Assembly (NCBI GenBank): GCA_963741905.1
Contig: CAVUJZ010000012.1
Span: forward strand, 80,758 to 144,757
Origin: an uncultured Acidobacteriota bacterium
GTDB taxonomy: Bacteria > Acidobacteriota > Thermoanaerobaculia > Gp7-AA8 > CAVUJZ01
Direction of reading: 5' to 3'
DNA length: 64,000 bases
Shown: piece by piece, positions 1,488 through 57,965 of the stretch
How positions within the stretch are numbered: position 1 is the stretch's first letter
Layout of the letters: each line of letters opens with the position of its first letter
Notes under the pieces: generated by a model
The model's input: the letters and a program-made list of their open reading frames with translations, nothing else
The model's database searches: none
What the model was told of the DNA's origin: nothing
Made by a program: the position numbers and the translations under genes

Positions 1488-1492
1488 ACACG

Positions 1493-1527: not shown

Positions 1528-1549
1528 CGTCAAACCGGATCGGATTGCG

Positions 1550-2281: not shown

Positions 2282-2602
2282 ATGAATCAAGAGCGATTGA
2301 GAAAGTTCTCAAACACCGCAGACCGGCCGAGTGAAGAGAAGACAGTGGCCGTCCTCGAACCGGATGAAGTGATGAATTTCGCTCGACTGGACGTCCTGGT
2401 GACCTTGTTCGACGGGGATCCCGATGCCTGGCTGGACCACATTGTCTCCCTTCCCGTCCATCCCGGGAGCATGAATGACGTCGTCTTTCTGCGCCAGGTC
2501 AAGCGTTGTCTCGATCGCAACACGGGGATGTCGCGGCGGCTGCGTGAGCTGGTTCGCGAGGTGAGAACGATTCTCGACGAACTTCAACCGGTTTCGAACT
2601 GA
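2282..2602 (+). CDS. Hypothetical protein
   Basis: ORF 2213..2602. The ATG at 2282 follows AAGGAAG. Locally lower GC. No recognisable motifs. Confidence 0.35.
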   Translation: MNQERLRKFSNTADRPSEEKTVAVLEPDEVMNFARLDVLVTLFDGDPDAWLDHIVSLPVHPGSMNDVVFLRQVKRCLDRNTGMSRRLRELVREVRTILDELQPVSN

Positions 2603-2650
2603 TCGCCTTTGATTGTCCGGTCACGATCGGGGAATCGCCGCAGCCCTGAA

Positions 2651-14290: not shown

Positions 14291-15295
14291 GTGGCCGGAC
14301 TTTGTCTCGGATGCGCCGGGTGAAGGTTGGGGTTGACCGACGAGGGCGAAGCGCGTCCGGGGCAAGTTCGGCAGCGTGGAGGAGAGCTCGGGCCCTGCGA
14401 GTTTTCATCATCCGGGAGCCGAACTTGTCTGCTCCGGCGGGTGCCGGCGTCGTGGGGGTGGGCGGTCGGGGCGTGCCGAAGCAGACAAAGTCCGCCCACT
14501 TGGGGAAAGGCAAAGTGGGCGGACTTTGTCTCGGATGCGCCGGGTGAAGGTTGAGGACGGGCGACGAGGGTCAAGCGCATCCGGGACAAGTTCGGCAGCG
14601 TGGAGGAGAGCTCGGGCCCTGCGAGTTTTCATCATCCGGGAGCCGAACTTGTCTCTGCTCCGGCGGGTGCCGGCGTCGTGGGGGTGGACGGTCGGGGCGT
14701 GCCGAAGCAGACAAAGTCCGCCCACTGGGGAAAGGGGGTTGACCGACGAGGGTGAAGCGCATCCGGGACAAGTTCGGCAGCGTGGAGGAGAGCTCGGGCC
14801 CTGCCAGTTTTCATCATCCGGGAGCCGAACTTGTCTGCTCCGGCGCGTACCGGCGTCGTGGGGTGGGCGGTCGGGGCGTGCCGAAGCAGACAAAGTCCGC
14901 CCACTTGGGGTTGACCGACGAGGGTGAAGCGCATCCGGGACAAGTTCGGCAGCGGGGAGGAGAGCTCGGGCCCTGCCAGTTTTCATCATCCGGGAGCCGA
15001 ACTTGTCTGCTCCGGCGGGTGCCGGCGTCGTGGGGTGGACGGTCGGGGCGTGCCGAAGCAGACAAAGTCCGCCCACTTGGGGTTGACCGACGAGGGGAAG
15101 CGCATCCGGGACAAGTTCGGCAGCGTGGAGGAGAGCTCGGGCCCTGCCAGTTTTCATCATCCGGGAGCCGAACTTGTCTGCTCCGGCGGGTGCCGGCGTC
15201 GTGGGCGTGGACGGTCGGGGCGTGCCGAAGCAGACAAAGTCCGCCCACTTGGGGTTGACCGACGAGGGGAAGCGCGTCCGGGACAAGTTCGGCAT
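14291..15295. repeat. Tandem array of a 172-nt unit (~5.3 copies) with internal inverted repeats
   Basis: Unit starts at 14331, 14545 (192-nt variant), 14737, 14909 and 15081, with a partial copy at 15253. The last full units differ at only 3-5 positions. Each has GACAAGTTCGGC/GCCGAACTTGTC around a 45-nt loop. Confidence 0.9.
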
Positions 15296-32594: not shown

Positions 32595-32606
32595 TTCGTC
32601 GGAACA

Positions 32607-32834
32607 GGGGGTCGGAGCTAAGAAATCAAATTTCCCGTTCGCTCCGCCCGCCTCCGGGCGGAGGAGTCATCGCCCGGCAACGTCCCCCGTGCCTTTCTTC
32701 CCGGTGGAGCCCCCTGCCGCCTGGCCGCATCCGCCTCTCACTCGGCATCGACCGGCCCCCATGCTGATGCCCGATCTGCCGGGTTCGCCTCTTCGCATCC
32801 CCCGCTGAGTTTTTTATTTTTTAGCTCCGACCCC
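32607..32834 (+). mobile_element. MITE-like element, copy 1 (228 bp)
   Basis: Terminal inverted repeats GGGGTCGGAGCTAAGAAAT ... ATTTTTTAGCTCCGACCCC. The internal sequence is shared with 35035..35360. Confidence 0.7.
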
Positions 32835-32937
32835 AGGTTTCTCCCACCTGCTCTACGCCTCGCGCGGCCAGGAGTTGCAGCGCCTCGCGGGCGGCATCGC
32901 GCATGTGGAGCAGACGCTCCTCATCAGTCGGCTTCAT
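32821..32937 (-). pseudogene. HEPN (DUF86) toxin gene remnant, truncated by the MITE
   Basis: MKPTDEERLLHMRDAAREALQLL... (38 aa). Its start overlaps the MNT stop by 14 nt. The reading frame runs into the MITE terminus, where the stop lies. Confidence 0.5.
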
Positions 32938-33253
32938 AAATCGGCTCGGACTCGGCGACGACTTCCTGCCGGAAGTAGCGACTGAGATCCTCCGGAGTCC
33001 TGAGGTCCACGCGTCTGCCCAACAATGCGGAAAGTTCGCTCTCGATCCGCACGATTCTGAACAGTCCGGGAATCTTTTGCTCGTCGAATTCCACCAGGAG
33101 ATCGATATCACTTTCCGGTGTCGCGTTACCGTGCAGCGTCGATCCGAAGAGTGCAAGACGTCGAACACCGTGAGAGCGGCACAGGCGCTCCAGATCGCCG
33201 CGATCGAATCGCACCCGCGCTGATGCCAACGGTGAAGTCGACCGTTCTGTCAT
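32924..33253 (-). CDS. Nucleotidyltransferase (MNT-type antitoxin of HEPN/MNT pairs)
   Basis: RLALFGSTLHGNATPESDIDLLVEF (GS...DxD nucleotidyltransferase motif). Confidence 0.8.
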   Translation of the reverse strand: MTERSTSPLASARVRFDRGDLERLCRSHGVRRLALFGSTLHGNATPESDIDLLVEFDEQKIPGLFRIVRIESELSALLGRRVDLRTPEDLSRYFRQEVVAESEPIYEAD

Positions 33254-33259
33254 CCGTCC

Positions 33260-33690
33260 ATGGTATCAGGGAACCGTCACTGCTCGAACATCGCCGGTCT
33301 CCAACGGAGTTCCACGAGCCGAAAGGATTGTCGGACGGGGCGGCCATCGTCGATGCGGTGATCGACACGCTCCGTTCCCCGCCGTCGCGGCGGAGAGGCG
33401 TGCAGCGGATCGGGGCGATGTAGTCGGCAGCCTCTTCGAGTGCCTGGATCGCCGACTCGGCCCGGCGTCACGGTGTACTTCGCCACGCCGTACCACTCCT
33501 GGGAGCGTGGCACCAACGAGAACACCAACGGGCTGATCCGGCAGTACCTCCCGAAGCGAGCTTCCATGCAAGGGCTGACGCAGGACCGCTGCAACGGGAT
33601 CGCACGGAAGCTCAACCACCGCCCCAGGGAACGCTACGACTTTGCCACACCACTCGAGCGACTCGACGAACTCCTGGATAGCCACCCGGG
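33260..33690 (+). pseudogene. IS30-family transposase remnant (C-terminal part, frameshifted)
   Basis: SLLEHRRS (cf. TLVER.SR) in one frame. VYFATPYHSWERGTNENTNGLIRQYLPK...LNHRPRERYDFATPLE in another. No N-terminal half. Confidence 0.7.
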
Positions 33691-33848
33691 ACGCGAGAGC
33701 GACGAAGATCCCACCGAAGGGCGACACCCCCTCCTCGATCCTCCCCCTCGAGGGGGAGGAGGAAAGACAACGGCGCCGAAGAAGCGCTACTACAGGCGAC
33801 GCGCCTTATCGAAGTCCCGCCAGCGAAATAAGGTAGGATCCGCTCACG

Positions 33849-34409
33849 TCAGTGTTGCACTTCGCCCTTGACCTCAGACGCGCCGTCCGATTCGCCAGGC
33901 ATCGAGGAGACGCTGAGGGCAAGCCGGTATGCGGCGGCCGCGAACTGCGGATTCGATGTTCGATAGTGGAACAGAAGCAGCGATGGGCTTTCCCAACCAT
34001 CGCTCGAACGCGCAGTCCAGGATGTGACACCACACTGGACCCCGGCCTCGAAGGAGTGTCGCGAGCGTGATACCAGGAACGCTTCACGATCGGCATATCG
34101 CATCACCTGTCCCGACTCTTTCTCCTTTGTCTCGCCACCGCACGCCTCCCCGGGTTCTTCCTCCTCGAATTGCTCTACCGATGGACCCGCGTTGCCAGCG
34201 TAGAAACGGAGCAATTCCTTGCCATCCTCGATTCTGATGACATGCCCAAAACCGAAGTCCACCTGAGGAATCTCGCTCAAGCAGTACCCGTTGGGTACGG
34301 TGACCGAGAGGCCATTGTCCAGAACTGTCGTCCCCACGCGGCACTCTGGGACCGGCTCCGCGGTCAACACCACAGCAACAGATGCGAGCAATATGATCGC
34401 TCTCTTCAT
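33849..34409 (-). CDS. Secreted hypothetical protein (cassette-borne)
   Basis: ATG at 34409 gives MKRAIILLASVAVVLTA. It starts 17 nt after the GTTATCC box of the attC-like site at 34426..34525. Confidence 0.5.
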   Translation of the reverse strand: MKRAIILLASVAVVLTAEPVPECRVGTTVLDNGLSVTVPNGYCLSEIPQVDFGFGHVIRIEDGKELLRFYAGNAGPSVEQFEEEEPGEACGGETKEKESGQVMRYADREAFLVSRSRHSFEAGVQCGVTSWTARSSDGWESPSLLLFHYRTSNPQFAAAAYRLALSVSSMPGESDGASEVKGEVQH

Positions 34410-34425
34410 GACGGTCACGTACGGT

Positions 34426-34525
34426 GGATAACGATTCCCGCTCAGGCGCGGGGACGCACCGGAGACGGTGAATTGATGAGCAATGGTACCGCGTGCCCGC
34501 GTCCGGTGGAACGGGTTTGTTATGT
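34426..34525 (-). other. attC-like recombination site (100 nt)
   Basis: Minus strand reads ACATAAC...GTTATCC. Arms pair with two one-sided bulges. The 3' arm GCGCCTGAGCGGGAATCGTTATCC closely matches the 38785..38886 site. Confidence 0.65.
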
Positions 34526-34549
34526 GCCGGTCCGAGGTATCCTGCAGCG

Positions 34550-34783
34550 ATGCATTTCGAGATTCTCGGCGAGTTGCGGAGCGTGGAGACGATCGCCTCC
34601 GGACCAGGGATTCGGGATCTGGCGATCCTGCAGAAGAAGTTCGGCCGCGGGAACTGGCGGAAGCTGAAGGCAGTCGCAACGATTCGGCTCGCCAATGGCG
34701 ATGTCGTGGATGCGGAGCTACACTGGTACGAGGCGCACGGGATCGGGAAGCGCTGGATGAAGGTGAAACGTTACCTGAGCTGA
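34550..34783 (+). CDS. Small basic protein, module gene A (77 aa), unknown family
   Basis: MHFEILGELRSVETIASGPGIRDL...WRKLK...ELHWYEAHGIGKRWMKVKRYLS. Paralogue of 38532..38759. Confidence 0.6.
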   Translation: MHFEILGELRSVETIASGPGIRDLAILQKKFGRGNWRKLKAVATIRLANGDVVDAELHWYEAHGIGKRWMKVKRYLS

Positions 34784-34785
34784 CG

Positions 34786-35016
34786 ATGAACGAAACGAAG
34801 CATTTTGCAATCTGCATCCGGAACGAGGGGTACGAAGGTGCCCTGGAGCTGCGGAAGCTGTACGAGATCATCGACGACCCCACCGCCGCACGCCACGATT
34901 CGATCAGAGTCGTCGACGAATCCGGCGAAGACTACCTCTACCCGAACGACTGGTTCATTCGCCTCGATCTGCCCACCACCGTCGAAGAGCGACTCGTTGA
35001 GCTGCAATCGCCTTGA
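34786..35016 (+). CDS. Small acidic protein, module gene B (76 aa), unknown family
   Basis: Starts 2 nt after the gene A stop. FAICIRNEGYEGALELRKLYEIIDDP...RVVDESGEDYLYPNDWFIRLDLP. Paralogue of 38293..38529. Confidence 0.6.
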   Translation: MNETKHFAICIRNEGYEGALELRKLYEIIDDPTAARHDSIRVVDESGEDYLYPNDWFIRLDLPTTVEERLVELQSP

Positions 35017-35034
35017 GGCACATAAGGGAAAAGT

Positions 35035-35360
35035 GGGGTCGGAGCTAAAAAATCAAATTTTCAGTTCGTTCCGCTGGCCTCCGGGCGAAGGACTCATCCG
35101 GCCAAAGTCGCCCGTGCCTCTCTCCCCGGTGGCGCCTCCCCTCAGGTGGTCAACTTCGAATCCTTCGCAGTGGGTCACTCTTCCATCTTCATGGACAAAT
35201 GGCTCGACCTGACCGAACAGGAGGACGATGGCTACGCCTACCGCCTGCGCCAGATCCGCCTCTCACTCGGGATCGACCAGGCCCCATTTCTGAAGATCGA
35301 TCTGCCGGGTCCGCCTCTTCGCATCCCCCGCTGAGTTTTCTATTTTTTAGCTCCGGCCCC
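35035..35360 (+). mobile_element. MITE-like element, copy 2 (326 bp, longer variant)
   Basis: Same termini (GGGGTCGGAGCTAAAAAAT ... ATTTTTTAGCTCCGGCCCC) and the same 3' ~110 nt as copy 1, with extra internal sequence. Confidence 0.7.
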
Positions 35361-35487
35361 GGATTTGCCTCGGCTCTTGAACTCTTCTGGATATCTTCCG
35401 ATCGTGGGCTCTCCTTCCAAATCTTCAGGTGTCCACGAAACCGGGTCAACTCCAGTCCCCAAAAGGTGGTCCTTTTGCTCGGTCCCC

Positions 35488-36318
35488 CTACTGCGGTGTG
35501 ATGACCGTGATCTGCTGAGTCTCGTTGTTCGTGATGCTGACGAAGGCCCAGTATCTCAACCCCTCGGTCAATGGCTGGATACGAACACGTAAACGGGACG
35601 CCGTGACGAGCTGCGGAAACGCCGCGACGAGATCACCGATCTCAGCGTAAGCCGGCTTTTCCGGATAGAGAGGTTCACGGGTGGGATCCGTTCCGCCCCG
35701 GAGCGGAAGAACCGAATCGACCAGGGTCACTGCAGGCTTGCCCTGCTCGCTGGCGATCTGGTCGTCGATCAGAACCCGAACCTCAGCCGCGTTCGTCGGA
35801 ATGGGCTCATAGATCCGCAGGGTCAGCCGATACCGCGAATCCGTTGGCGCACCAGTGAGCTCCACGGGACTGGTGAGAAAATCCGGATCACGGATGACCG
35901 GAACTTCCGTCCCCCAGCTTCCATTCATCCTCGAGTCATCCCAGACCCTGAGGAAGAACTGAACCTGGGACGCATGCTCTTCCTCAAGCACGAAGATCGC
36001 GCCTGGATTCTGCGCAGCGTTGGATCCTGCAACTCTGAATGCGCTATTCGGGGGGATCGTCACGAAGTCGCCATCGCAGCCGGTTGTGATCAGGCAAAAT
36101 GGAGATCCCCAGGAAAAGACCACCGGGGCGGGAGCACCGTTGCTGACTGTCAGTTCGGTTCGCCAGTCGGCACCGAACCTGCCGGGCGTCTGCTCGATGA
36201 TGAGGGGTACCAGGACCTTCTGCAGAGGGGGAGGCGCAGGCAGCTGCGCCCGGACATGGACGGAAAGCAGGGTGGTGAACAGCCAGCAAGCAAGGCACCA
36301 GAACTTTCGCATCTCCAC
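35488..36318 (-). CDS. Secreted hypothetical protein (276 aa)
   Basis: Signal peptide MRKFWCLACWLFTTLLSVHVRA. GGAGGTGA lies upstream. No family recognised. Confidence 0.55.
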   Translation of the reverse strand: MEMRKFWCLACWLFTTLLSVHVRAQLPAPPPLQKVLVPLIIEQTPGRFGADWRTELTVSNGAPAPVVFSWGSPFCLITTGCDGDFVTIPPNSAFRVAGSNAAQNPGAIFVLEEEHASQVQFFLRVWDDSRMNGSWGTEVPVIRDPDFLTSPVELTGAPTDSRYRLTLRIYEPIPTNAAEVRVLIDDQIASEQGKPAVTLVDSVLPLRGGTDPTREPLYPEKPAYAEIGDLVAAFPQLVTASRLRVRIQPLTEGLRYWAFVSITNNETQQITVITPQ

Positions 36319-36400
36319 AGATCACCTCCGCTGGACCAGGTACTGTCCATCCGGTGACTAGTACCGTTCGCCCGTGTCCGGTGCTCAGCGTGTCTCGGAC

Positions 36401-37015
36401 CTAGGTCTGCTTCCCCTTCATGATCGCTACCTTCGCCAACTTGTTCGCGAATTCTCCGATTTCTCGGAGCATATCGGCCAGCTCGGCGAACGACAATTCG
36501 GCAGTCGCGGAATGCACCGCTCGGTTGCTGAGCCAGACAGGGTGAAGATGACCAGCTGGGAGTTCGTCTGGATCGAAGTGGCGAGCCGTGTTGTAGATGA
36601 AGTTCAGCCTCTCGTGAGGGGAGCCACCGCCCTTGGTGAATACATCCTCATTGAACACTCGACGCGCGAAATCGAAGGCCTGCCAGGCAGCGGCGATAGT
36701 GGATTCCAAATGATGGATGCACCGAAAGTACTGCGACGGTCGGAGCGGCGTGGTTGAGATGTACTCGATCAGGGCCGTACGGAAGAGCGCGTGTTCCATG
36801 AACGCTGCCTCGGCGCGACGGAGAAACCCTAAACCGAACCGGCGGCGTCCGTGATCGATTGGGTGGCCAAATGTCGAGTTCAGAATGAATTCAGAGAGCC
36901 AGCCGCCAGCCCTGAAGGGCTCGGACGCAAGGTCTGGTACGTGGCACTCCGTCAGATTGGAGAGCTCCTGTGAGATGTACCGGTCAAATGCGAAGTTAGA
37001 AAGTGGCATGGGCAT
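36401..37015 (-). CDS. Hypothetical cytoplasmic protein (204 aa)
   Basis: Clean ORF with locally lower GC. Starts 17 nt after a GTTATAC box. No family recognised. Confidence 0.5.
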   Translation of the reverse strand: MPMPLSNFAFDRYISQELSNLTECHVPDLASEPFRAGGWLSEFILNSTFGHPIDHGRRRFGLGFLRRAEAAFMEHALFRTALIEYISTTPLRPSQYFRCIHHLESTIAAAWQAFDFARRVFNEDVFTKGGGSPHERLNFIYNTARHFDPDELPAGHLHPVWLSNRAVHSATAELSFAELADMLREIGEFANKLAKVAIMKGKQT

Positions 37016-37031
37016 GGCCTCGGCGGAGGGA

Positions 37032-37092
37032 GTATAACGGCCCGGCGGTCAGCCGCGAGGGGCGCACTCGAAGACTACACCGATAGTTATGC
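37032..37092 (-). other. Short attC-like site (61 nt), weak
   Basis: Minus strand reads GCATAAC...GTTATAC. The 3' part GGTGTAGTCTTCGAGTGCGCCCCTCGCGGCT resembles the 38197..38298 site, but arm pairing is poor. Confidence 0.35.
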
Positions 37093-37203
37093 GGAGTGTT
37101 CGATGGCGCAATCCACTACGGATATTCGAAGACTCTCGATTGCCCGATCACTCTGCTGGTATGGGGCGCCAGCTTTCAGTCCAGGAAACTGCGTACAGCG
37201 CGC

Positions 37204-37461
37204 TCAATAGGCTCGAGGCTCGCGCAACTCGCACTCCCAGAGCACGAGCACCGACCATCCCTGCGTCTCGAGCCGCGTCAGGTTGCGGCGGTCCCGTTCA
37301 ACATTCGAGCAACGCTTCGCCTGCCAGACCTTCGCGTTCGTTTTCGGCGCAACCCGACCGTACCGACAATCATGCATGTGCCAATAGCAACCGTGAACGA
37401 AAATCACTTTCTTTCGGCCGGCAAAGACGAGATCCGGTTTCCCGGGGGCCCTCGGGGTCAC
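37204..37461 (-). CDS. Very-short-patch-repair (Vsr) endonuclease, C-terminal catalytic part; N-terminus degenerate
   Basis: GKPDLVFAGRKKVIFVHGCYWHMHDC...PKTNAKVWQAKRCSNVERDRRN...GWSVLVLWECEL. Upstream (to ~37600) only frame-broken traces of the N-terminal region remain. Confidence 0.7.
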   Translation of the reverse strand: MTPRAPGKPDLVFAGRKKVIFVHGCYWHMHDCRYGRVAPKTNAKVWQAKRCSNVERDRRNLTRLETQGWSVLVLWECELREPRAY

Positions 37462-37699
37462 ATCTTCGGTTGTTGGTTTGCCTACCAGATGTAGAGGCGA
37501 ACTGTGAAAACGGGCGAATTGCCCCAGACTCCCGGAATTCCGAACACCGAAGATATGACCCCGAGGAGCCTGTTACTTGTTTCCTGTCTGTCGTCAACTA
37601 GAACCGCGTGCCGCGTTGAATCAGGTATTCTATTACCAGGCGTCGGTCGTTGCCTCATGAACTGTGCTACCGCCGTCGAGAACGGTGGGAGAAGGAATG

Positions 37700-37870
37700 G
37701 GGAACACGGATCAGGAAAATTGGGAAGAATAGGGGATTCGGCGGGGATGGGACCGGGGGATCAGGCTGGTCGGGCCTTCAGAATGGGACCTGTTCGATGC
37801 CGAGGGAGAGGCGGATGCGGCGCAGGCGGGAGGCGTAGGGGAAGAATTGGGGTCTACCCAGCTCCGACCC
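37700..37870 (-). mobile_element. MITE-like element, copy 3 (degenerate, opposite orientation)
   Basis: 37740-37830 is the reverse complement of the CCGCATCCGCCTCTC.CTCGGCATCGA... core of copies 1 and 2. Ends in AGCTCCGACCC at 37870. Confidence 0.4.
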
Positions 37871-37989
37871 GAGGTTTCCCCGGCGATCTGTCCTTTTGTC
37901 GTCTCCTTGGTCCCGCCGGGGTTCTGGAACTCGGGGCGGTGCCAGCGGGTGATGGCGCGGCTCTATTCCTCGGCGCGCTCGGAGTTATG

Positions 37990-38187
37990 TTAAGCGCGGA
38001 ACTTAAAAAGGAGGCGTCTGTCGTAACGATCCCTCGCAGTCCCCACAAGCTTCCACAGCCTCCCCAGATCCTCGCTGACGATCTCAGCTCGGAGATAGGC
38101 GTCTGCTGCTTCGTTTGCTGGCTGCCATCCTTCTCCCCTATCCGGAAGGAGCGGGTGAAACGCAACTGAGTCGGAGGGATATCCCAT
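37990..38187 (-). CDS. Possible small ORF (65 aa) in a cassette
   Basis: ATG at 38187 lies 10 nt after the GTTATCC box. The TAA stop lies inside GCTTAAC. No homology recognised. Confidence 0.25.
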   Translation of the reverse strand: MGYPSDSVAFHPLLPDRGEGWQPANEAADAYLRAEIVSEDLGRLWKLVGTARDRYDRRLLFKFRA

Positions 38188-38196
38188 GGCTGAGGC

Positions 38197-38298
38197 GGAT
38201 AACGGCTTCGCGATGAGCCGCGAGGCCCGCACTGGAAGACTACACCAGGTTACAGCCACGCCGATGCGGGCTGAGTCGGCTCGATCGCAAAGTTATGC
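38197..38298 (-). other. attC-like recombination site (102 nt)
   Basis: Minus strand reads GCATAAC (contains the TAA stop of gene B') ... GTTATCC. The 5' arm GCGAT[C]GAGCCG[A]C pairs with the 3' arm; the bracketed bases are unpaired. Confidence 0.75.
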
Positions 38299-38529
38299 GG
38301 GCGTGGCCTCGGCGTCGAGAACCGCCTTTTCCACTGAGGATGGAAGGTGGACGCGCACGAAGAAATCTTCAGGGAAAAAGTAGTCTTCGCCCGACTCATC
38401 GATGACGCGAAGCATCCCATCCCGTTCGGCACGGGGGTCGCTGATGACCTGGTAGATCTTCCGCACTTCGAGGGAGCCCTCGTTGCCGGTGTTCCGCACG
38501 CAGATGACGAAATCGTATTTTTTCGGCAT
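38293..38529 (-). CDS. Small acidic protein, module gene B' (78 aa)
   Basis: MPKKYDFVICVRNTGNEGSLEVRKIYQVISDP...RVIDESGEDYFFPEDFFVRVHLP. Starts 2 nt after the gene A' stop. Confidence 0.6.
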   Translation of the reverse strand: MPKKYDFVICVRNTGNEGSLEVRKIYQVISDPRAERDGMLRVIDESGEDYFFPEDFFVRVHLPSSVEKAVLDAEATPA

Positions 38530-38531
38530 GG

Positions 38532-38759
38532 TCAGTCGAGATAACGCTTGATTTTCAGGTCTTTCTTTCCGATCCCGTGAGCTTCGTACCAGTGTAGCTC
38601 CACTCGACGAACGTCGCCACTCGGCACGCAGACGAGCGCGGTACCCTTCAGTTTGCGCCATCGGCCCTTCCCGAACACCTCGATCAGTCGAGGCAACTCG
38701 CGAATGCCACGACCCGTCGCGATCGTTTCGATTTCGGAGATCTCACCGATGAGTTCCAC
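38532..38759 (-). CDS. Small basic protein, module gene A' (75 aa)
   Basis: GTG start. ELIGEISEIETIATGRGIREL...GRWRKLKG...ELHWYEAHGIGKKDLKIKRYLD. Confidence 0.6.
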   Translation of the reverse strand: MELIGEISEIETIATGRGIRELPRLIEVFGKGRWRKLKGTALVCVPSGDVRRVELHWYEAHGIGKKDLKIKRYLD

Positions 38760-38784
38760 GCGCGAAGACTACCATTCCCGGCCC

Positions 38785-38886
38785 GCATAACGCTTCCGCT
38801 CAGCCGCGATAACGCGGCCGCGCCGCCCGAACAGTTTACCAAACCTTGAGTGCCGCGTTATCGTCGGCTGCAGCGGATAGTTAGGC
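38785..38886 (-). other. attC-like recombination site (102 nt)
   Basis: Minus strand reads GCCTAAC (perfect RYYYAAC, contains the TAA stop of 38881..39408) ... GTTATGC. Arms are TCCGCT[G]CAGCCG[A]CGATAACGCGGC / GCCGCGTTATCGCGGCTGAGCGGA. Confidence 0.8.
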
Positions 38887-39408
38887 GCGCCGGACGGCAA
38901 TGGCTATCACTCCCGCGAGGGCCATGAGTATTCCGGCTAGGACTACTACCAACGTGACCGTGGAAATGAGAGTGCGCAGCGACGGCGGTGCGAAGATTGA
39001 GGAAGACAGATGAACCAGAACGGCACCGACGGCTGCGTAGAGTCCAAAGGCCGCGAGGAACCACCGCGGGCGAGGCGTCGTTGACCTCACAAAATAGACC
39101 CCAGGGACGATGAGGAGCAACTGAAGTGCTGGGAGGTAGTTTGACGCCGTGAAGGCCGGCTCCGAGGGAAACCGGGACACAACCGCAGATAGCAGGAGGA
39201 GACCGTCGAAGGCTGCCGCGGTTAGCAGATAGGGAAATGTCCGGGCCCTCTTCATCGCCAGCGGCACGAGGACGGCATATGCCGCGAGCGACCAGACGGT
39301 GAGAAGACCTGCCTGCGCTGGCGGCATGTCCAAGTGGTAGTGAAACCACCGCGCGCCAGCGAACGTTAGAGCAAGCAATGTAATCGAAAGAATACGCATA
39401 CTTATCAA
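38881..39408 (-). CDS. Polytopic membrane protein (175 aa), hypothetical
   Basis: Five to six hydrophobic helices. Cassette-borne. Confidence 0.6.
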   Translation of the reverse strand: MISMRILSITLLALTFAGARWFHYHLDMPPAQAGLLTVWSLAAYAVLVPLAMKRARTFPYLLTAAAFDGLLLLSAVVSRFPSEPAFTASNYLPALQLLLIVPGVYFVRSTTPRPRWFLAAFGLYAAVGAVLVHLSSSIFAPPSLRTLISTVTLVVVLAGILMALAGVIAIAVRRA

Positions 39409-39412
39409 GAGC

Positions 39413-39514
39413 GCCTAACGATCGTGGCTGAGCCGCCAGCGCACGGCTCGGCAATGTCTCAAAAGTGAGTAGCGGCTGAACGTGCGCTGGTCGGCCCGAG
39501 CCACCTTGTTATGC
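39413..39514 (-). other. attC-like recombination site (102 nt)
   Basis: Minus strand reads GCATAAC ... GTTAGGC. Arms are GTGGCT[C]GGGCCG[A]CCAGCGCACG / CGTGCGCTGGCGGCTCAGCCAC. Starts 6 nt after the stop of 39521..40027. Confidence 0.8.
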
Positions 39515-39520
39515 GCCGGG

Positions 39521-40027
39521 TCACTCCCACCAGTACACATCTCGGTGGTTCACGACGATGACATCATAGGTGACCTCAGGTCCTGGCGGAAGCGTAACCC
39601 TGAGCAGGTGGCGCTCCCCCTGCTTCAGAAGACGATCGATCGGCAACAAACCATTGTCGTCGATGTTCGATGCGAACGGAGGATGCAGAGTGTCAGCCCG
39701 CCAGTACAACTTCCGATGCCCATACTTCTGCGACTTTTCGGGAGCTGACTCTTCCAAACGGACCGTCTTCTCCACTATCCCCGCGCCTCGATGCAGAATC
39801 CCAATACTGAAGGTTTCCGGCCACGGTACTTCAGTCCCGGGATCCTCAATGAAGGCGAACAACGTCCAGTCGCCCTCATCGACAAATTCGAGTTCGGCTT
39901 CGACGGATTGGCCACTCGGACGGTGAATCTCTCCGATCACACGACCGACCTGCATTCTTTCGGAGCATCCGAGGAGGCAGACTGTGAGGCCCACCAGAAG
40001 TCGTAACCGGTATCTCATTCGGCGCAT
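39521..40027 (-). CDS. Hypothetical lipoprotein (168 aa)
   Basis: MRRMRYRLRLLVGLTVCLLGCS lipobox. The ATG lies inside the GTTATGC box at 40024-40030. Confidence 0.6.
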   Translation of the reverse strand: MRRMRYRLRLLVGLTVCLLGCSERMQVGRVIGEIHRPSGQSVEAELEFVDEGDWTLFAFIEDPGTEVPWPETFSIGILHRGAGIVEKTVRLEESAPEKSQKYGHRKLYWRADTLHPPFASNIDDNGLLPIDRLLKQGERHLLRVTLPPGPEVTYDVIVVNHRDVYWWE

Positions 40028-40152
40028 AACTTGTTGCTCAGCGATTGTATCTGAGCTATCCAAAATGGAGAAGCCCGGCCAGTCTTGACCAGTATCGCCG
40101 GAAGGAGCTCTCCGCCGGTGGAGGCTCAATGTCCTGAGCCAACTGGGTTTGC
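40024..40152 (-). other. Degenerate attC-like site (129 nt)
   Basis: The 3' arm AATCGCTGAGCAACAAGTTATGC matches the family. The 5' arm GTTG[G]CTCAGGACATTG pairs with it. The R''-type box (CGCAAAC) is non-canonical. Confidence 0.45.
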
Positions 40153-40301
40153 GGCTGGCTGTTACAGGTCGGTTCCGGGCATATCCGCTCGCTCGGCGAC
40201 CCGTAGCACGGCGCCGCAGGAGTGGTGCTCGCCCATTCCTCAATCCGGTCCACCGGGCTCCAGTTCGCGCCGTTGCCCGGACGATTCAGTACGGGAAACG
40301 G

Positions 40302-40875
40302 GGGGTCGGAGCAAAGAAGGCAAATTTGCATTCATCCCGTGTGTGCCGCCCCCTTCGGGGCTCACGGGAGGTTCCAGGACGCCATCCGGGCCCTCACTGG
40401 CCCGGCTGAACAAGGTTCCACCCTTCGGGCTCAGGCCTTCATCGCCAGGGCCGGATTTCTTACGCCGTCTCGTCGGCGGGAAGACGTGGCCGCAGCGGCT
40501 CGGCCTGGAATGTTCATTCGTCGTTCTCTTCGGAAGCGGGTTGCCCCTCACCCCGGCCCTCTCCCCGAAGTTCGTTCGCGCTTCGAGGGAACGGTTCGAC
40601 GGGGAGAGGGGGATCGCCTCGGGCGGGTTTCGCTTCGTGGAGCGCGCCCTCGGCGGCGGGACGCCGTCCTCCTCCGCTTCGCTACGGCGCGACAAGCCGG
40701 GGATCGGGCCAGCGGCCCGACCCCCACAGGCTCTTGGGGCCGGAGCTAAAAGTTCAAATTGGCATTCATCTCGTGTGTGCCGCCCCTTCGGGGCTCCGGA
40801 AGATTCGAAGACGCCATCCGGGCCCTCACGGGCCCGGCTAAACAAGGTTCCGCCCTTCGGGCTCAGACCTTCATC
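40302..40875. repeat. Two ~140-nt direct repeats (40302-40444, 40737-40875) that open with the MITE-type terminus
   Basis: GGGGTCGGAGCAAAGAAGGCAAATTTGCATTCATCCCGTGTGTGCCGCCCCCTTCGGGGCTC... versus GGGGCCGGAGCTAAAAGTTCAAATTGGCATTCATCTCGTGTGTGCCGCCCCTTCGGGGCTC... A CCCCTCTCCCCG...CGGGGAGAGGGG hairpin lies between them. Confidence 0.6.
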
Positions 40876-40899
40876 GGGCAATGCCCGTTTCCCTCCCCA

Positions 40900-40940
40900 C
40901 AGAGATGAAAGGCCTCCTGCCCGGGAGGGACAGGAGGCCT
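40900..40940 (-). terminator. Probable terminator of the RND operon
   Basis: 10-bp stem AGGCCTCCTG/CAGGAGGCCT, followed on the minus strand by TTTCATCTCT. Confidence 0.5.
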
Positions 40941-40960
40941 GGGGAGACTTCGGTCGTTGC

Positions 40961-43900
40961 GGCTTACTCGGCTGAGTAGGCGGCGGTGGGCGAGGTCTCG
41001 GGGCGGGGGATTCGCCTCCGGCGAGCCGGGAACGGAGCTTCTTCCAGATCGGCGCCTGGGCCCAGTCGTCGAAGATGCTGTACATCACCGGGGTTCCGAG
41101 CAGCGTGAGCAGAAGCACGAGCGTCTGCCCGCCGATGATGGTCGAGCCGATCGCGCGGTTGGTCCCCGCGCCGGCTCCGCTCGAGGCGACCAGCGGGATC
41201 ATGCCGGCGACGAAGGCCATGGTGGTCATCAGGATCGGCCGCAGGCGGTCGCGGTTCGCATGCATGATCGCATCGAGGCGGCTCATCCCCGCGCTCGCGC
41301 AGCTGGTTGGTGTGGTCGACCTGGAGGATCGAGTTCTTCTTCACGACGCCGAAGAGCACCAGGATGCCGAGCGAGCGAGAAGATGTTCAACGACTGGTTG
41401 AGCACCAGGATCGAGAGCAGCGCGAAGGGCAACCGTCAGAGGCAGCGACGATCAGAATGGTGATCGGGTGGATCCAGCTCTCGAACTGCGCCGCGAGAAT
41501 CAGGTACATGAAGATGATCGAGAGAATGAAGGCGAGCATGAAGTTCTTCGCCGCCTTCCCCTGCTCGCGCGAGCGGCCGGTGAGCCCGGAGGAGTAGTCC
41601 GCCGGGAGCTTCATCTGGTCGACCGTTTTCGCGATCTCGTCGAGCACCGCCTGGGACGAGTATCCCGGCAGCATGTTGGCCATGATCATCACCTGACGGC
41701 GGCGGTTGATCCGGTTGATCACCGAGGGACCGGTCCCCTCGTCGAGGGTGACGACGTCGGTCAGCGGAACCGTTCCGAGTTTCGACGAAGGCACCTCCAT
41801 CCGGCCGATCCGGGCGGCATCGTTCCGCTCACTCACCTCGGCGCGTGCATGCACCTCGTACTCCTCGCCGCCCTCGTAGTAGCTGGTGACGTACTGGCCG
41901 CCGACGAGCACATTGAGCGCGGTGGCGATGTCCTGAACCCGGACTCCGAGGTCGGCGGCCTTGTCCCGGTCGATGTGGACGCCGAGCTCCGGCTTTCCGA
42001 CGATGTAGTCGGTGTCGATGTCGGCCACACCCGGCACCTTGCCGGATTCTCTCCACGATCTTCTCCGAGTACTGATCGAGCTGTTCGAGGTCCGGACCGC
42101 CGAGCCAGAACATGATCTCGGCGTTGCGGCCCGCCGCCGAAGGTGTTGACCGGCGCGACCTGCGCCCGGAGGTTCAACTTCTCGTACTGCGGCAGAATCT
42201 CGGTCCGGACGCGCTGCATGATCTCGAACTGATCCTGATCGCGATCGCCGACATCCTTGAGGCTCACGTAAAGCGAACCGAGGTTGCGGGTCTTCTGAAA
42301 GTCGTCCCCGATGGTCAGAACGGTGGTCTTGACTCCCGGAAGCTCGCGGACGCGCTTGTCGATCGACTGCAGGATCGTCTCGGTGGTTCCCATGCTGGAC
42401 CCTTCCGGCGCGCGGACACTGATCGAGAACTGCGACTCGTCGTCCACCGGCAGGAAGTTCTTGTTGACCGCAATGAACAGCGGCACGGTCGAGAGGAACA
42501 CCAGCACCATGATGGTGACGATCACCCAGCGGTGGGCCATGGACCATTCGAGCATCTTCATGTACCGCCGCTCGAAGAACGAATAGAACCCGGTGTCCCG
42601 CGAGCCGCCGCCGTGGGCCAGATCCTTCCGGGTCAGCCAGCGCGACGAGAGCATCGGGGTGAGCGAAAAACTGACGACCAGCGACACGGCGATGGCGAAC
42701 GCCATGGTCACGCCGAACGAGTACATGAACCGTCCGACGATGCCTCCCATGAACGCAACCGGAAGAAAGACCGCGATCAGCGACAGACTGGTCGCCATGA
42801 CCGCCAGACCGACTTCCTTCGTGCCGGCGACCGCGGCCTGCATCGGGGTCATGTTCTTCTCTTCCATGAAGCGGAAGATGTTCTCCAGCACGACCACGGC
42901 GTCGTCGATGACGATCCCGACGGCGAGGGTCAGCGCCAGAAGTGACAGAACGTTCAGGGTGAAGCCCATCAGCTTCATCGCGGCGAACGTCGCGATCAGC
43001 GAAGAGGGAATCGCAATCGCCGCGATCAGCGTGGGCCGGAATCTCCGGAGGAAGAGCCAGACGATGAACGCCGCGAAGATGGCGCCGAGCAGAAGGTGCT
43101 CCTTCACCGCGTCCAGAGCGGAGTGAATGTAGGTGGACTGGTCACGGACCATCTCCATCTTCCATCCCGCCGGGAGGGTCGGCGCAACTTCATCGACCCG
43201 CTCCTTGATCGCATCGACCACCGCCACGGTGTTCGTTCCGGACTGTTTGAGCATCGACAGAACGACGGCCGGCTTTCCGCCCACCCGGGCGATGGACTCC
43301 GGCTCGGCGGTGCTGTCCTCGACGGTGGCCACGTCGCGGATCCGGATGGTCTCGCCATTGCGCTTCGCCACCGCGATGTCGCCGAACTCGGCAGGATGAT
43401 CGACCCGGCCGTAGGTGCGCAGCGAGAGCTCGCGGAGCGACTGCTCCACCCGTCCACCCGGGATCTGTACGTTCTGAGTCTTCAGGGCGGCGACCACATC
43501 GTTCGAGGTCAGCCCGAGGCTGGAGAGCTTGCCGGTATCCAGCACGATGTTGATCTGCCGTGGCTGGGCGCCGACCATGGTCACCTGACCTACGCCCGAG
43601 ACGGTCTCGAGGCGGCGGCGCAGAACCTTGTCGGCATACTCGGAGATCTCCCTCGACGAGGCCGGACCGGAGAGGGCGACGGCGAGCACCGGGACCGAAT
43701 CCGACTGGATCTTCTGAATGATCGGAGGATCGGCGTCGTCGGGGAGCTCACCGAGAATCGAGCTGACCCGGTCACGCACTTCCTGCGCGGCGACGTCCGG
43801 ATCCTTCTCCAGAACGAATCCGATGTTGACCACCGAGATGTTCTCCGAGGAGGTCGATCGAAGCTCGTCGATGCCACTGATGGTGTTGACCGCTTCCTCG

Positions 43901-44103
43901 ATCTTGTCGGTGATCTCGGTCTCCACCTCCTCCGGAGCGGCGCCCGGAAGCACGGTGGTGATGGTCACGAAGGGGAACTCGATTTTCGGAAACCGGTCCA
44001 CTCCGAGGCTGTAGTAGGAGAAGCCTCCGACGACCACCAGTGCCAGAACCAGCACGGAGGCGAAGACGGGGCGTCGAACACAAATTTCAGCGAGTTTCTG
44101 CAT
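40961..44103 (-). CDS. RND (AcrB/HAE1-type) efflux pump inner-membrane subunit, multiple apparent frameshifts
   Basis: N-terminal ~650 aa intact in ORF 41833..44103 ([29 protein letters not shown]). The rest is spread over ORFs 41829..42113, 41387..42547, 40964..41359 and 40240..41286 ([33 protein letters not shown]). Breaks cluster at ~42045-42125 and ~41285-41460. Confidence 0.85.
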
Positions 44104-47085: not shown

Positions 47086-48064
47086 CGGGATGTTTACATA
47101 TCGTGGCCGAATCATTCCGATGTTCGGCCATCGCTCCACTTGCCAATCAGCTCCGGCCCCCGCGCGAGGTCCGCCCGCAGCGTGACCAACACCGCCAGCT
47201 CCGTGGAACCCTCGACCCGAGCTCCGCCCTCACGCTCCGTCGCACCCTGGCCAAACATCAGAATGTTTGCCCACATCGTGGCCGAATCATTCCGATGTTC
47301 GGCCATCGCTCCACTTGCCAATCAGTTCCGGGCCCCGCGCGAGGTCCGCCCGCAGCGTGATCAACACCGCAGCTCCGTGGCACCCTCGACCCGAGTCCGC
47401 CCTCACGCTCCGTCGCACCCTGGCCAAACATCAGAATGTTTGCCCACATCGTGGCCGAATCATTCCGATGTTCGGCCATCGCTCCATTTGCCAATCAGTC
47501 CGGCCCCCGCGCGAGGTCCGCCCGCAGCGTGACCAACACCGCCAGCTCCGTGGCAGCCCTCGACCCGGCTCCGCCCTCACGCTCCGTGGCACCCTGGCCA
47601 AACATCAGAATGTTTGCCCACATCGTGGCCGAATCATTCCGATGTTCGGCCATCGCTCCACTTGCCAATCAGTTCCGGGCCCCGCGCGAAGATCGCCCGC
47701 AGCGCGAGCAACACCGCCAGCTCCTTGGCACCCTCGACCCCAGTGCCGCCGTCACCCTCCGTGGCACCCTGGCCAAACATCAGAATGTTTGCCCACGTAG
47801 CACCTGCCCACAACATCAGAACGTCTGCCCACATCGTGGCCGAATCATTCCGATGTTCGGCCATCGTTCCACTTGCCAATCAGTTCCGGCCCCCGCGCGA
47901 GGCCCGCCCGCAGCGTGAGCGACACCGCCAGCTCCGTGGCACCCTCGACCCCAAGTGCCGCCGTCGCCCTCCGTGGCACCCTGGCCAAACATCAGAATGT
48001 TTGCCCACGTAGCACCTGCCCACAACATCAGAATGTTTGCCCACATCGTGGCCGAATCATTCTG
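47086..48064. repeat. Tandem array of a ~175-nt unit, left block (about 5.5 units)
   Basis: Units start at 47086 (degenerate), 47259, 47432, 47606, 47781 and 47993. The conserved head is CAGAATGTTTGCCCACATCGTGGCCGAATCATTCCGATGTTCGGCCATCG, containing the hairpin GGCCGAA-N11-TTCGGCC. Confidence 0.9.
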
Positions 48065-49585
48065 ACGGTAAATCCTCAGTTGGGAAGCAGGGCTCGCAAG
48101 GGGTTGGTGCGCAGTCTCCAGGGTGAGGGCGAGTAGAAGTTGTTTGTTTCGAGTAACTCGGCGAACTGCGCCGCAGTTGAAGCGGTCATTGCGTCCAAGC
48201 GTGTGAGGATGCGCTGAAACTCGTCTCTCCAGCGCCCCTTCAACCCAAGTCGGAGCAGGATCTGTCGCCCCCGGGAGCCGACCAGCGCGCCGATGACGAG
48301 AATCCTGTTCCGGATCGTGCTCAGAGTCAGCGACGGATCCTGCAGTACGGTCGCCTTGAAAAAGGCGATCAGGTTGAATGTGAAGATGATCAGGCGGAAT
48401 GCGGCCTCGGTTCCTTCAAATTTTTTCAGACAAAATCCGTCCGCATTGAAGTCGTACTTGAGTTCCTTGATGCGGTTCTCGCAGTCCCCTCGCCCGTTGT
48501 AGAACCGCCACACCTGGACCGGATCGGTCGTCAGGCTCGTCACCATCGCACGGTATTCGTAGTCGATGATCTCGAACAGCCCGTTTTCCTTCCGCACGAT
48601 CCTGCGTCGGACGATCATCCGTCGCGGAGCGTCCCACTTGGACGACTGGTACATCGCTTCGGTGATCTCTTCATCGGTGCGGAGTCGTTGCCATCCATCC
48701 AGCCCGGCGCACCACTTCTTGAACGGCTTCGACATCTTCGCCACCACGACATAGGGCAGATTCAATGACTCGAACTTTCTGAGAAGCGCGTCCGAATAGA
48801 AGCCTGAGTCCGCTCGCACGGCCTCGATTTGAAACCCCGGAGGAATCCGCTCCCACAGCTCGCTCATGAACTCACAGACGCCTCGGTGTGGCGACGCGGC
48901 TCCGGATCGCATCCACGCATGCACGATCATCTTGGATTTGGACAGCATGGCCAGTAGGGGGTGGTGGGATCGCGCACCTGGACGAACCGGGTTGTATCCC
49001 TTGGTGCTCCCCTCCTGGTTCCCATGCCGTTGAAAGACTGTCGAGTCGAGGTCGAGAACGTCCCGCGACGTGATGTGGCTCAAAGCCTGGAATACCCACT
49101 GGCTCAGACACTCATGCAGGTGTTCTCCCTGGCTGGGAAGCAGGTTGCCCAGGTATCTCGTCACCGACGATGCAGAGCCGAACCGCTTCGCTCCCGCCGC
49201 TGCCCGCACCACCTCATCCTCGCGGATCCGCTCCACGTGTTCGAACCGTCGTCCGCCCATCAGCACTGTGAACATCAGTTGCACCATCATGTCCACGACC
49301 GGAACCTGATTCGGCGAGGTCCGCCCATCGGGCAAGGCGCGCCGAAGAAGCTCCCGCACTCCCAGCTTTTCCATTAACCGCCCGATGCTGACCAGCCCTC
49401 CCCACCCGCTGACCGGCTTCGTTGTGTACTCCACTCCCAGCTCGCTTGCTCTGCTATCATTCGTTCGCACCGTTCTGTCCCTACCTTCGCTTGTTTGTTT
49501 TTGATCCAAACGAATGATACCGAAGGAGTTCGGGGCGGTGCATCATCCTCTCTCCTCCTCCAACTGAGGATTTTCCGTCAGAATG
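48058..49585 (-). mobile_element. IS1380-family insertion sequence
   Basis: Inverted repeats CATTCTGACGG[T/A]AAATCCTCAGTTGG at both ends (25 of 26 bp match). The outer 7 nt also match the tandem-repeat unit, so the ends could be 48065/49578. One transposase ORF. Confidence 0.8.
48076..49509 (-). CDS. IS1380-family DDE transposase
   Basis: QEGSTKGYNPVRPGARSHHPLL and FYNGRGDCENRIKELKYDF match the family signatures (cf. ISEcp1 GASKGYNPKK / YYEKRGNAENYIKEAKYD). Confidence 0.85.
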   Translation of the reverse strand: MDQKQTSEGRDRTVRTNDSRASELGVEYTTKPVSGWGGLVSIGRLMEKLGVRELLRRALPDGRTSPNQVPVVDMMVQLMFTVLMGGRRFEHVERIREDEVVRAAAGAKRFGSASSVTRYLGNLLPSQGEHLHECLSQWVFQALSHITSRDVLDLDSTVFQRHGNQEGSTKGYNPVRPGARSHHPLLAMLSKSKMIVHAWMRSGAASPHRGVCEFMSELWERIPPGFQIEAVRADSGFYSDALLRKFESLNLPYVVVAKMSKPFKKWCAGLDGWQRLRTDEEITEAMYQSSKWDAPRRMIVRRRIVRKENGLFEIIDYEYRAMVTSLTTDPVQVWRFYNGRGDCENRIKELKYDFNADGFCLKKFEGTEAAFRLIIFTFNLIAFFKATVLQDPSLTLSTIRNRILVIGALVGSRGRQILLRLGLKGRWRDEFQRILTRLDAMTASTAAQFAELLETNNFYSPSPWRLRTNPLRALLPN

Positions 49586-50135
49586 TTTGCCCACATCGTG
49601 GCCGAATCATTCCGATGTTCGGCCATCGCTCCACTTGCCAATCAGTTCCGGCCCCCGCGCGAGGCTCGCCCGCAGCGTGAGCAACACCGCCAGCTCCATG
49701 GCACCCTCGAGCCCGAGTTGCCAACCCTCACGCTCCGTGGCACCCTGGCCAAACATCAGAATGTTTGCCCACATCGTGGCCGAATCATTCCGATGTTCGG
49801 CCATCGCTCCATTTGCCAATCAGTTCCGGCCCCCGCGCGAGGTCCGCCCGCAGCGTGAGCAACACCGCCAGCTCCGTGGAACCCTCGACCCAAGTTCCGC
49901 CCTCACGCTCCGTGGCACCCTGGCCAAACATCAGAATGTTTGCCCACATCGTGGCCGAATCATTCCGATGTTCGGCCATCGTTCCACTTGCCAATCAGTT
50001 CCGGCCCCCGCGCGAGTCTCGCCCGCAGCGTGAGCAATCCCACCAGCTCCGTGGCACCCTCGACCCCAAGTGCCACCGTCGCCCTCCGTGGCACCCTGGC
50101 CAAACATCAGAATGTTTGCCCACGTAGCTCGAACC
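49579..50135. repeat. Tandem array of the ~175-nt unit, right block (3 units plus a partial)
   Basis: Units start at 49579, 49757, 49932 and 50108 (partial). Same unit as 47086..48064. Confidence 0.9.
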
Positions 50136-57551: not shown

Positions 57552-57707
57552 CCATCATCCCGGAGGTCGTTGGGCGGTGGCTTTGGACTGCGGGGCAGCG
57601 CACCGCTTTCCTTGAAGGTCCATCGGCGTCCTGAGCACGACCTTCAACGAAAGCGGCGCTTGTCGGGCTCGGCGAGGGTTGATCGGGTGTCGCTTCTGGC
57701 GGCTGCA

Positions 57708-57799
57708 GGGGACGGGTCAGGAGACCCGTCCCACACGGGGGGAGGTTGGTCGGGTCTCGTTTCTGCCCCCGTGTAGGACGGGTCTCCCGACCCGTCCCC
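57708..57799. repeat. Nested palindromic REP-like element
   Basis: Two 34-nt arms, GGGGACGGGTCAGGAGACCCGTCCCACACGGGGG and CCCCCGTGTAGGACGGGTCTCCCGACCCGTCCCC, are inverted copies. Each arm is itself a hairpin (GACGGGTC/GACCCGTC). Confidence 0.6.
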
Positions 57800-57965
57800 T
57801 GGGCTCCACGAAGCGAGGAGCTCGGGTCTCGCGAGGAAGGCGGAGCACATCATGAGGTTCGCTCTCCGAAAGAGCAGGGCGCTGCAATATCCAAATCGGC
57901 GTCACCCTGTGGGGTGGGGCGGCGCAGCACTCCAAAGGGAGCCGAAAAGAAGCCGGCCCGACCAC

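Follow-up and report, generated by a model that had tools for sequence, protein, structure and literature searches.

The question raised by this locus is whether a run of small, co-oriented genes in an uncultured acidobacterium is an integron cassette array that persists without an integrase at its side. The locus lies in a stretch of 64,000 nucleotides from an uncultured Acidobacteriota bacterium of the Thermoanaerobaculia (assembly GCA_963741905.1, contig CAVUJZ010000012.1, positions 80,758 to 144,757), hereafter called the window, in whose coordinates all positions are given. An earlier note, made from the letters of the window alone, had described a series of attC-like hairpins between 33,849 and 40,152, with no integrase nearby. 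The results presented below indicate that the minus strand from about 33.85 to 40.03 kb is very probably a chromosomal integron-type cassette array of the CALIN type (a cluster of attC sites with no integron integrase), which is decaying and has no integrase in the 64-kb window. Four full attC sites and one internally deleted attC site were found in it.

attC sites of the array

Three of the full sites are 102 nt long and form the 3' ends of cassettes 1, 2 and 3, respectively: B (39413..39514, GCATAAC...GTTAGGC), C (38785..38886, GCCTAAC...GTTATGC) and D (38197..38298, GCATAAC...GTTATCC). The fourth, F (34426..34525, ACATAAC...GTTATCC), measures 100 nt and forms the 3' end of a cassette with an inverted gene pair. 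All of them are on the minus strand, with the coordinates and boxes that the earlier note had given. In these four sites and in the 61-nt remnant E (37032..37092, minus strand) the sequence has the form xxxTAAC...GTTAxxx, with an inverse core (R'') and a crossover box (R') that are mutually complementary; at 40030 only R' is present. The register of the window sites (7-nt inverse core, 9 nt, xAGCCGAC, variable loop, GGCTxA, 9 nt, GTTRRRY) was found in a side-by-side comparison to be that of the cmlA1, VIM-2 and aadA attC sites. The likeness to class 1 cassette attC sites (cmlA1, blaVIM-2, aadA1/2, aadB) comprises this identical box register, the GTTRRRY crossover box, bulges 6 bp apart and, between cmlA1 and site C, nearly identical L boxes, CGCTGCAGCCGAC...GGCTGAGC being common to both; in contrast, the window sites are longer (100-102 nt vs 60-72 nt, with a longer variable loop), are associated with no resistance cargo and belong to another phylum.

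Covariance models were used to search for the sites, and the two that yielded matches (R2 and R3) were built solely from attC sites outside the window. Thirteen attC sites were read out from class 1 integrons of resistance plasmids (aadA1, aadA2, aadB, blaVIM-2, aacA4, cmlA1, estX, psp, qacL, dfrA12, gcuF, aac(6')-29a and arr-3); since MAFFT misaligned arr-3 and dfrA12 among the full-length sequences, arr-3 was dropped and dfrA12 was trimmed. A model of the class 1 sites cut to 55 nt (R1) produced no match in the window, which was attributed to its not spanning sites of 100 nt. Model R2, derived from 12 plasmid class 1 attC sites with one long-loop member, was run unfiltered on both strands of the 64 kb, and its top three matches were sites C (34.3 bits, E = 7e-7), B (18.7 bits, E = 0.014) and D (14.1 bits, E = 0.26), each a full-length minus-strand match at the positions given above, the boxes of site C aligning without gaps to the class 1 consensus; the matches below these three were noise.

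Model R3 was derived from seven attC sites outside the window, located on three soil-metagenome contigs, and its stem contained 11 covarying pairs. On the minus strand it recovered B (86.2 bits, E = 2e-26), F (53.0 bits, E = 4e-15), C (49.4 bits, E = 8e-14), D (34.7 bits, E = 8e-9) and E (17.8 bits, E = 0.005; here 7 nt stand in place of the 47 positions at the center of the model), these E-values being rough. The plus-strand scores were far below the minus-strand scores at every site, so that the orientation of the sites is defined. A check equivalent to the covariance-model run that the earlier note had suggested was positive with two independent models for B, C and D, and with R3 also for F and E. 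No Rfam family was matched at its gathering threshold in the whole window.

A family of attC sites of about 100 nt is common to the window and to otherwise unrelated soil-metagenome contigs. Site B is 84% identical, loop included, to the metagenomic attC site at positions 1306-1407 of contig L020, and the loop sequence of window sites is shared with sites on other contigs at up to 84-87% identity; within the array the attC sites are 57-68% identical. A pattern scan of metagenomes with the 19-mer CGTGCGCTGGCGGCTCAGC returned 76 loci, of which only L024 and L081 contained attC sites, the remainder being probably chance matches in GC-rich DNA. L024 and L081 supplied two of the seven sites used for R3.

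Two of the proposed sites had to be reassessed. Site E, which had been listed as a weak site of 61 nt, reads as a genuine attC, as its R3 score indicates, and as a deletion derivative rather than a full site: both boxes are kept, the 5' arm has lost about 41 nt, and its 3' half (37029-37081) is 81% identical to 38194-38246 in site D. The degenerate 129-nt attC proposed at 40152-40024 was abandoned, as it was matched by neither R2 nor R3 and its likeness to the other sites did not exceed that of shuffled sequences. Its only real part is the GTTATGCGCCG end, the crossover box GTTATGC (40024..40030, minus strand) that opens cassette 1, which was validated by an 11-nt exact complement in that cassette's own inverse core. 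The sequence upstream of this box (40031-40295) could be a degenerate attC or a remnant of attI. An extra inverse core, ACATAAC at 37993, was supported by neither model. Outside the array, a near-perfect GC-rich hairpin of 94 nt (57707-57800) scored with R3 on both of its strands (25.7 and 17.6 bits); it has no TAAC/GTTA boxes and no asymmetry, and was rejected as an attC site.

The sites were folded as single-stranded DNA, taking the bottom strand, which is the plus strand of the window. The expected hairpin was obtained with z scores of -4.8 (B), -5.75 (C) and -3.1 (F), and the fold was weaker for site D (z = -2.2), in which a 3x3 internal loop weakens the stem. In the folds the TAAC/GTTA box is paired and is followed by a small unpaired spacer and a 6-bp L helix, the R and L helices being separated by internal loops of 2-3 nt opposite 1-3 nt. 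B, C, D and F each have a single extrahelical T, which is confined to the 3' arm and is followed by a stem of 10-12 bp. A second single-base bulge is located 6 bp from the T in site C (a C) and in site D (a G), at the same position as in aadA1, and a multi-base bulge takes its place in B and F. The strand-specific folds thus reproduced the hairpins with bulges on one arm that had been proposed. As far as sequence can tell, the sites behave as attC sites in every respect that could be tested.

Cassette boundaries and cargo

Complementarity between the start of a cassette and its own attC site is a signature of the circular intermediate. Checks by hand and with a script found exact reverse complements between 40030-40020 and 39518-39508 (11 nt), 39419-39411 and 38888-38880 (9 nt), 38791-38781 and 38302-38292 (11 nt), and 35025-35017 and 34528-34520 (9 nt), which are the four pairs on which the earlier note had relied most. 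In an all-against-all table the own pairs scored 11, 9, 11 and 10, and the other values in the same rows and columns ranged from 4 to 9; since own pairs outscored wrong pairs, the signal is unit-specific and not merely a shared consensus. The TTRRRY start was complementary to the unit's own RYYYAA in all of the units with both ends present (4/4). The TAA stop codons of the open reading frames (ORFs) 38881-39408 and 38293-38529 were located inside GCCTAAC (at 38886) and GCATAAC (at 38298), also as proposed. The starts after sites D, E and F had no partner inverse core anywhere, as truncation predicts. Four cassettes keep both ends, and at least four others are truncated or fused.

Cassettes 1 to 3 are bounded by G/TT points on the minus strand. 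Cassette 1 (39419..40029, 611 bp) encodes a predicted lipoprotein of 168 amino acids (aa; 39521-40027), with a signal peptide and an LLGC lipobox that fit this label; cassette 2 (38791..39418, 628 bp) encodes a multi-pass protein of 172-175 aa (38881-39408), whose sequence fits the membrane-protein label given to it; and cassette 3 (38203..38790, 588 bp) encodes two proteins, of 75 aa (38532-38759) and 78 aa (38293-38529). The fourth cassette with both ends (34432..35025, 594 bp, minus strand) begins with TTATGTGCC, to which its own inverse core is exactly complementary, and contains an inverted two-gene module, with genes on the plus strand at 34550-34783 and 34786-35016.

Between these cassettes, the interval from 38.2 to 35.4 kb consists of fused, truncated cassettes and is not a series of intact ones. 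Its first part (37038..38202, minus strand) starts with GTTATCCGCC, which has no partner inverse core, and comprises a 65-aa ORF (37990-38187), an inverted partial copy of a repeat resembling a miniature inverted-repeat transposable element (MITE; 37743-37880), a hairpin (37450-37566), a 5'-truncated vsr gene (37204-37461) and the remnant E. The second part (35371..37037, minus strand) starts with GTTATACTCC, likewise without a partner inverse core, and carries two orphan ORFs with no attC left, encoding 204 aa (36401-37015) and 276 aa with a signal peptide (35488-36318); neither R2 nor R3 matched there. The last, truncated cassette (33849..34431, minus strand) starts at the G/TT point of site F and encodes a secreted orphan protein of 186 aa (33849-34409); its attC is lost, and none was found downstream of it with R2, R3 or the boundary analysis.

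The cargo consists mostly of orphan proteins and includes no resistance genes. The cassette 1 lipoprotein belongs to no family in Pfam, NCBIfam, PADLOC or PHROGs, no family was found for the cassette 2 protein and the two orphan ORFs (204 aa and 276 aa), and exact-protein look-ups of four cassette products returned no record. An orphan Vsr had been named as cargo; a vsr match is present and is a fragment only, covering residues 47-120. The hairpin at 37450-37566 is a 21-bp, 95% complementary inverted repeat with its arms 75 nt apart. Its position coincides exactly with the point at which the vsr fragment is truncated on its 5' side, and a further small inserted element may end there. The G+C content was 0.59 across the array vs 0.64 outside, and the G+C content at third codon positions was about 0.68 in cassette ORFs vs 0.80-0.82 in neighboring core genes.

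The 75/78-aa module occurs twice in the array, with proteins of 75/77 aa and 78 aa, on the minus strand in cassette 3 (38293-38759) and inverted, on the plus strand, in the cassette at 34432..35025 (34550-35016), the paralogues in the latter being 56% and 47% identical to the cassette 3 genes. Both proteins lack a family in Pfam, NCBIfam, PADLOC and PHROGs. The 75-aa protein has more than 8,000 homologues and no Pfam family; these come from Gemmatimonadota, Methylomirabilota, Planctomycetota, Chloroflexota and other phyla, and across its occurrences the module measures 75-77 aa plus 76-84 aa. It was found in integron cassettes, in attC-free islands of small genes and alone in chromosomes (loci including L017-L021 and L098-L105); the small-gene island in L098-L105 carries the module and no attC sites, and was discarded as a cassette array. 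The closest homologue of the 75-aa protein (76%) is encoded on the metagenome contigs L020 and L021 (JGI metagenomes 3300078498 and 3300078354; arrays at 33-3290 and 807-2165), in which R2 found five attC sites, 98-102 nt in length, with the module enclosed between them as a cassette. The cassettes of L020, L021, L024 and L081 include DUF4160, ParE/antitoxin and glyoxalase genes. The metagenomic attC array runs off the contig end, and an integrase would lie outside the view.

The structure model of the 75-aa protein was confident (predicted local distance difference test, pLDDT, 93) and had no PDB match better than E = 0.48; that of its 78-aa partner was moderate (pLDDT 72) and had no PDB match. 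The label of toxin-antitoxin genes given to this pair in the earlier note has its basis in context only, the two genes being small, adjacent and always together; the proteins match no family or known fold. A tentative reading, to which we give rather little weight, is that the module may be a new and very widespread addiction, toxin-antitoxin or defense pair, carried by cassettes, which might stabilize arrays without an integrase.

Integrase searches, repeats and flanking genes

No integrase was detected in the window. A tblastn search over the 64 kb with IntI1, using a query 100% identical to the database IntI1, returned nothing below E = 1, no integrase or recombinase domain was found with Pfam in the six frames of 39950-41050, no intI pseudogene was found, and the 10 kb on each flank are filled by identified genes. 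To our knowledge, attI sites share no general consensus. No attC model matched the 265 nt that precede cassette 1 and end in GTTATGC, and no attI was recognizable in them. The results agree with the earlier note, which had named no integrase in the window and had seen no tyrosine-recombinase reading frame or attI between 40.03 and 40.3 kb. The tblastn search with IntI1 also found no integron integrase in the fetched metagenomic or relative loci; a match in L057 (27% identity, E = 2e-6) was set aside as single, weak and on a contig without an attC site.

The array is flanked and interrupted by copies of a MITE-like family with terminal inverted repeats of about GGGAAAnnnGGGGTCGGAGCTAAAAAAT. Copy M1 (32603..32841) is located between the stop codon of an M23 peptidase gene (32594) and a truncated HepT/MntA pair. 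Copy M2 (35026..35370), with inverted terminal repeats at 35025-35064 and 35331-35370, is 87-88% identical to M1, and its end lies exactly against the start (TT, first base) of the cassette at 34432..35025, at the G/TT crossover point. The tandem copies M3 (40295-40735) and M4 (40736-40990) lie between the 3' end of a resistance-nodulation-division (RND) pump gene and the array; direct repeats connect them (40302-40359 with 40736-40793, and 40341-40444 with 40773-40876), and their likeness to the other copies is limited to the first 60-100 nt. No target-site duplication was visible at the copies, and none of the 105 fetched loci contained a copy of the family. The repeat might target attC sites, a reading that is weaker than the one proposed for the two-gene module.

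Upstream of the array, on the minus strand, a TetR gene is followed by an operon for the outer-membrane factor, membrane-fusion protein and RND pump (47.1 to about 40.99 kb). The RND gene (40990-44103, minus strand) is read in three frames (ORFs 41833-44103, 41387-42547 and 40240-41286), which corresponds to two frameshifts and means either a pseudogene or an assembly indel error. The distal end of the array is marked by the remnant of an IS30-family transposase (33440..33871, plus strand), of which the last ~55 residues are left (NCBIfam NF033563, positions 212-266 of 267, E = 3e-22). Beyond it are the HepT/MntA pair, its HepT truncated and its MntA at 32924-33253 on the minus strand (NCBIfam NF047752, PADLOC PDC-S09), and the M23 peptidase and YkuD genes, on the strand opposite to the array. 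For both DeaD and the M23 peptidase, every one of the best named homologues belongs to the Thermoanaerobaculia (Acidobacteriota), with 57-71% identity. The nearest relatives share only YkuD and M23, and synteny stops at the M23 stop codon, where M1 begins; an exact match to the M23 protein was located on a 4.5-kb contig that breaks at the MITE.

Other repeats were observed in the window. An array of tandem units of ~175 nt (47100-48062 and 49578-50123; about 4, 2.3 and 3 copies, 93% matches, conserved 58-nt core) is split by an insertion sequence (IS; 48076-49509) with a DDE_Tnp_1_4 transposase. At 14562-15294 a 172-nt unit is repeated 4.2 times in tandem (95% matches); the copies overlap minus-strand ORFs and may encode a repeated protein domain.

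Origin of the array and comparison with known integrons

The minus strand carries all of the sites at 39514, 38886, 38298, 37092 and 34525, the largest gap between them is 2.5 kb and no intI is present; with neither an integrase nor a recognizable attI in the 64-kb window, the array qualifies as a CALIN under the operational definition given by Cury et al. 2016 (IntegronFinder, PMC4889954), which supports the CALIN reading offered in the earlier note. In RefSeq, CALINs and complete integrons are about equally frequent (PMC9024848). Like the CALINs of Cury et al., the array has at least two attC sites on the same strand with less than 4 kb between them, about 5-6 attC sites in all, no integrase nearby, mostly uncharacterized cargo and no resistance genes; nothing essential differs, the window array belonging to an uncultured Thermoanaerobaculia-like genome and showing visible erosion by MITE-like repeats and an IS30 remnant. 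A complete integron has an intI gene beside its array, for a tyrosine recombinase with the IntI-specific insertion, and an attI site and Pc promoter ahead of the first cassette; within the window no intI lies beside the array. With sedentary chromosomal arrays (the Vibrio cholerae superintegron with its V. cholerae repeat, VCR, sites, and those of Xanthomonas) the locus shares its chromosomal location, orphan cargo, a single attC length class (100-102 nt in the window) and a two-gene addiction-like module, one copy of which is inverted in the window. Sedentary chromosomal integrons are recognized by a large array (more than 19 attC sites) or by great homogeneity among these sites, together with an integrase conserved throughout the species. 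In contrast to the tens to hundreds of sites of such arrays, the window has 4-5, with 57-68% identity among them, and neither an integrase nor attI.

Integron cassettes are circles closed at G/TT, and the integrase acts on the folded bottom strand. Each cassette of the window would accordingly have once been a circle closed at G/TT, which an integron integrase would have inserted after binding the folded attC bottom strand, recognized through its paired R and L boxes, unpaired spacer and extrahelical bases. On its proximal side the array is cut off by the two MITE-like repeats beside the RND efflux operon and on its distal side by the IS30 remnant, and erosion of its middle is seen in the MITE fragments, the truncated vsr and the lost attC sites. 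Erosion at both ends and in the middle favors an old array whose platform was lost or separated. We infer that the array was assembled by an integrase in the past and that this integrase has been lost or relocated; the intact cassettes could still excise if an integrase were supplied in trans.

Four possible origins have been listed for CALINs: integrase loss, rearrangement, insertion at secondary sites and integrase-independent cassette creation (PMC4889954). It is possible, although on balance doubtful, that the array is a detached part of a working integron, with intI and attI elsewhere on the contig or in the genome, split off through MITE or IS elements and still reshuffling in trans. The perfect 9-11-nt complementarity between cassette starts and their own R'' suggests little decay since insertion, three to four of the attC sites fold well, and repeats and an IS remnant flank the array; moreover, about half of CALINs are found in replicons that encode IntI, and rearrangement is among their proposed origins (PMC4889954). 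However, the 24 kb upstream and the 32 kb downstream contain no intI, and the several cassettes that have lost their attC, together with the one internally deleted attC, argue against recent turnover. It is improbable that an integrase encoded elsewhere placed the cassettes at a secondary, non-attI site beside the RND operon, so that the locus never had one of its own. Integrase-mediated insertion outside att sites is documented (bioRxiv 10.1101/2022.09.11.507474; PMC4889954), and the sequence upstream of cassette 1 is not recognizable as attC, but eight or more co-oriented units are more than secondary-site events usually yield, and the 265 nt upstream are bounded by MITE copies, so that the original junction is gone.

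The genome does contain other repeat families and GC-rich hairpins, such as that at 57707-57800 with its R3 score, and MITE-like elements occur in the window; the attC sites could in this light be ordinary intergenic palindromes, such as terminators or repeats of the REP/BIME kind (repetitive extragenic palindromic sequences and bacterial interspersed mosaic elements), that resemble attC by coincidence. Like REP/BIME elements and MITEs, they are repeated imperfect palindromes in intergenic DNA. Nevertheless, a model of class 1 plasmid attC sites ranked exactly these sites at the top, the scores were strongly strand-asymmetric, and the AAC/GTT boxes, strand-asymmetric bulges on one side and unit-specific end complementarity are foreign to REP elements, terminators and MITEs, whereas the 57.7-kb hairpin has no TAAC/GTTA and scores on both strands. 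The true MITE-like family of the window is, furthermore, a separate sequence family (terminal inverted repeat GGGGTCGGAGCTAAAAAAT). A coincidental likeness is hence extremely unlikely.

Several points weigh against a decaying, integrase-less cassette array as the interpretation of the locus. The class 1 model R2 missed site F and gave site D an E-value of 0.26, and R3 was built from only seven sites on three contigs, with rough E-values. The evidence comes from the sequence of 64 kb of a contig of 158,090 nt, and no integrase is known for the genome. The two nearest relatives, 72% identical in M23, are too distant for a comparison of cassette presence and absence. Finally, with the RND gene in three frames, some of the apparent decay could be sequencing error, and if those frameshifts are assembly errors, caution is due with the other truncations in the window.

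Integrons have already been reported in Acidobacteriota (PMC8618304), and the array is a further example of a described type of element, not a new type; what is known of integrons is unchanged by it. Its value is that it adds a cassette array and a family of ~100-nt attC sites to the poorly sampled Thermoanaerobaculia, in a phylum whose integrons have been reported yet little described, and that it illustrates how arrays decay, through insertion of repeats and IS elements, internal deletion of attC sites and fusion of cassettes. Since this distant phylum keeps the exact box register of clinical class 1 sites, its cassettes would in principle be recruitable by mobile integrons.

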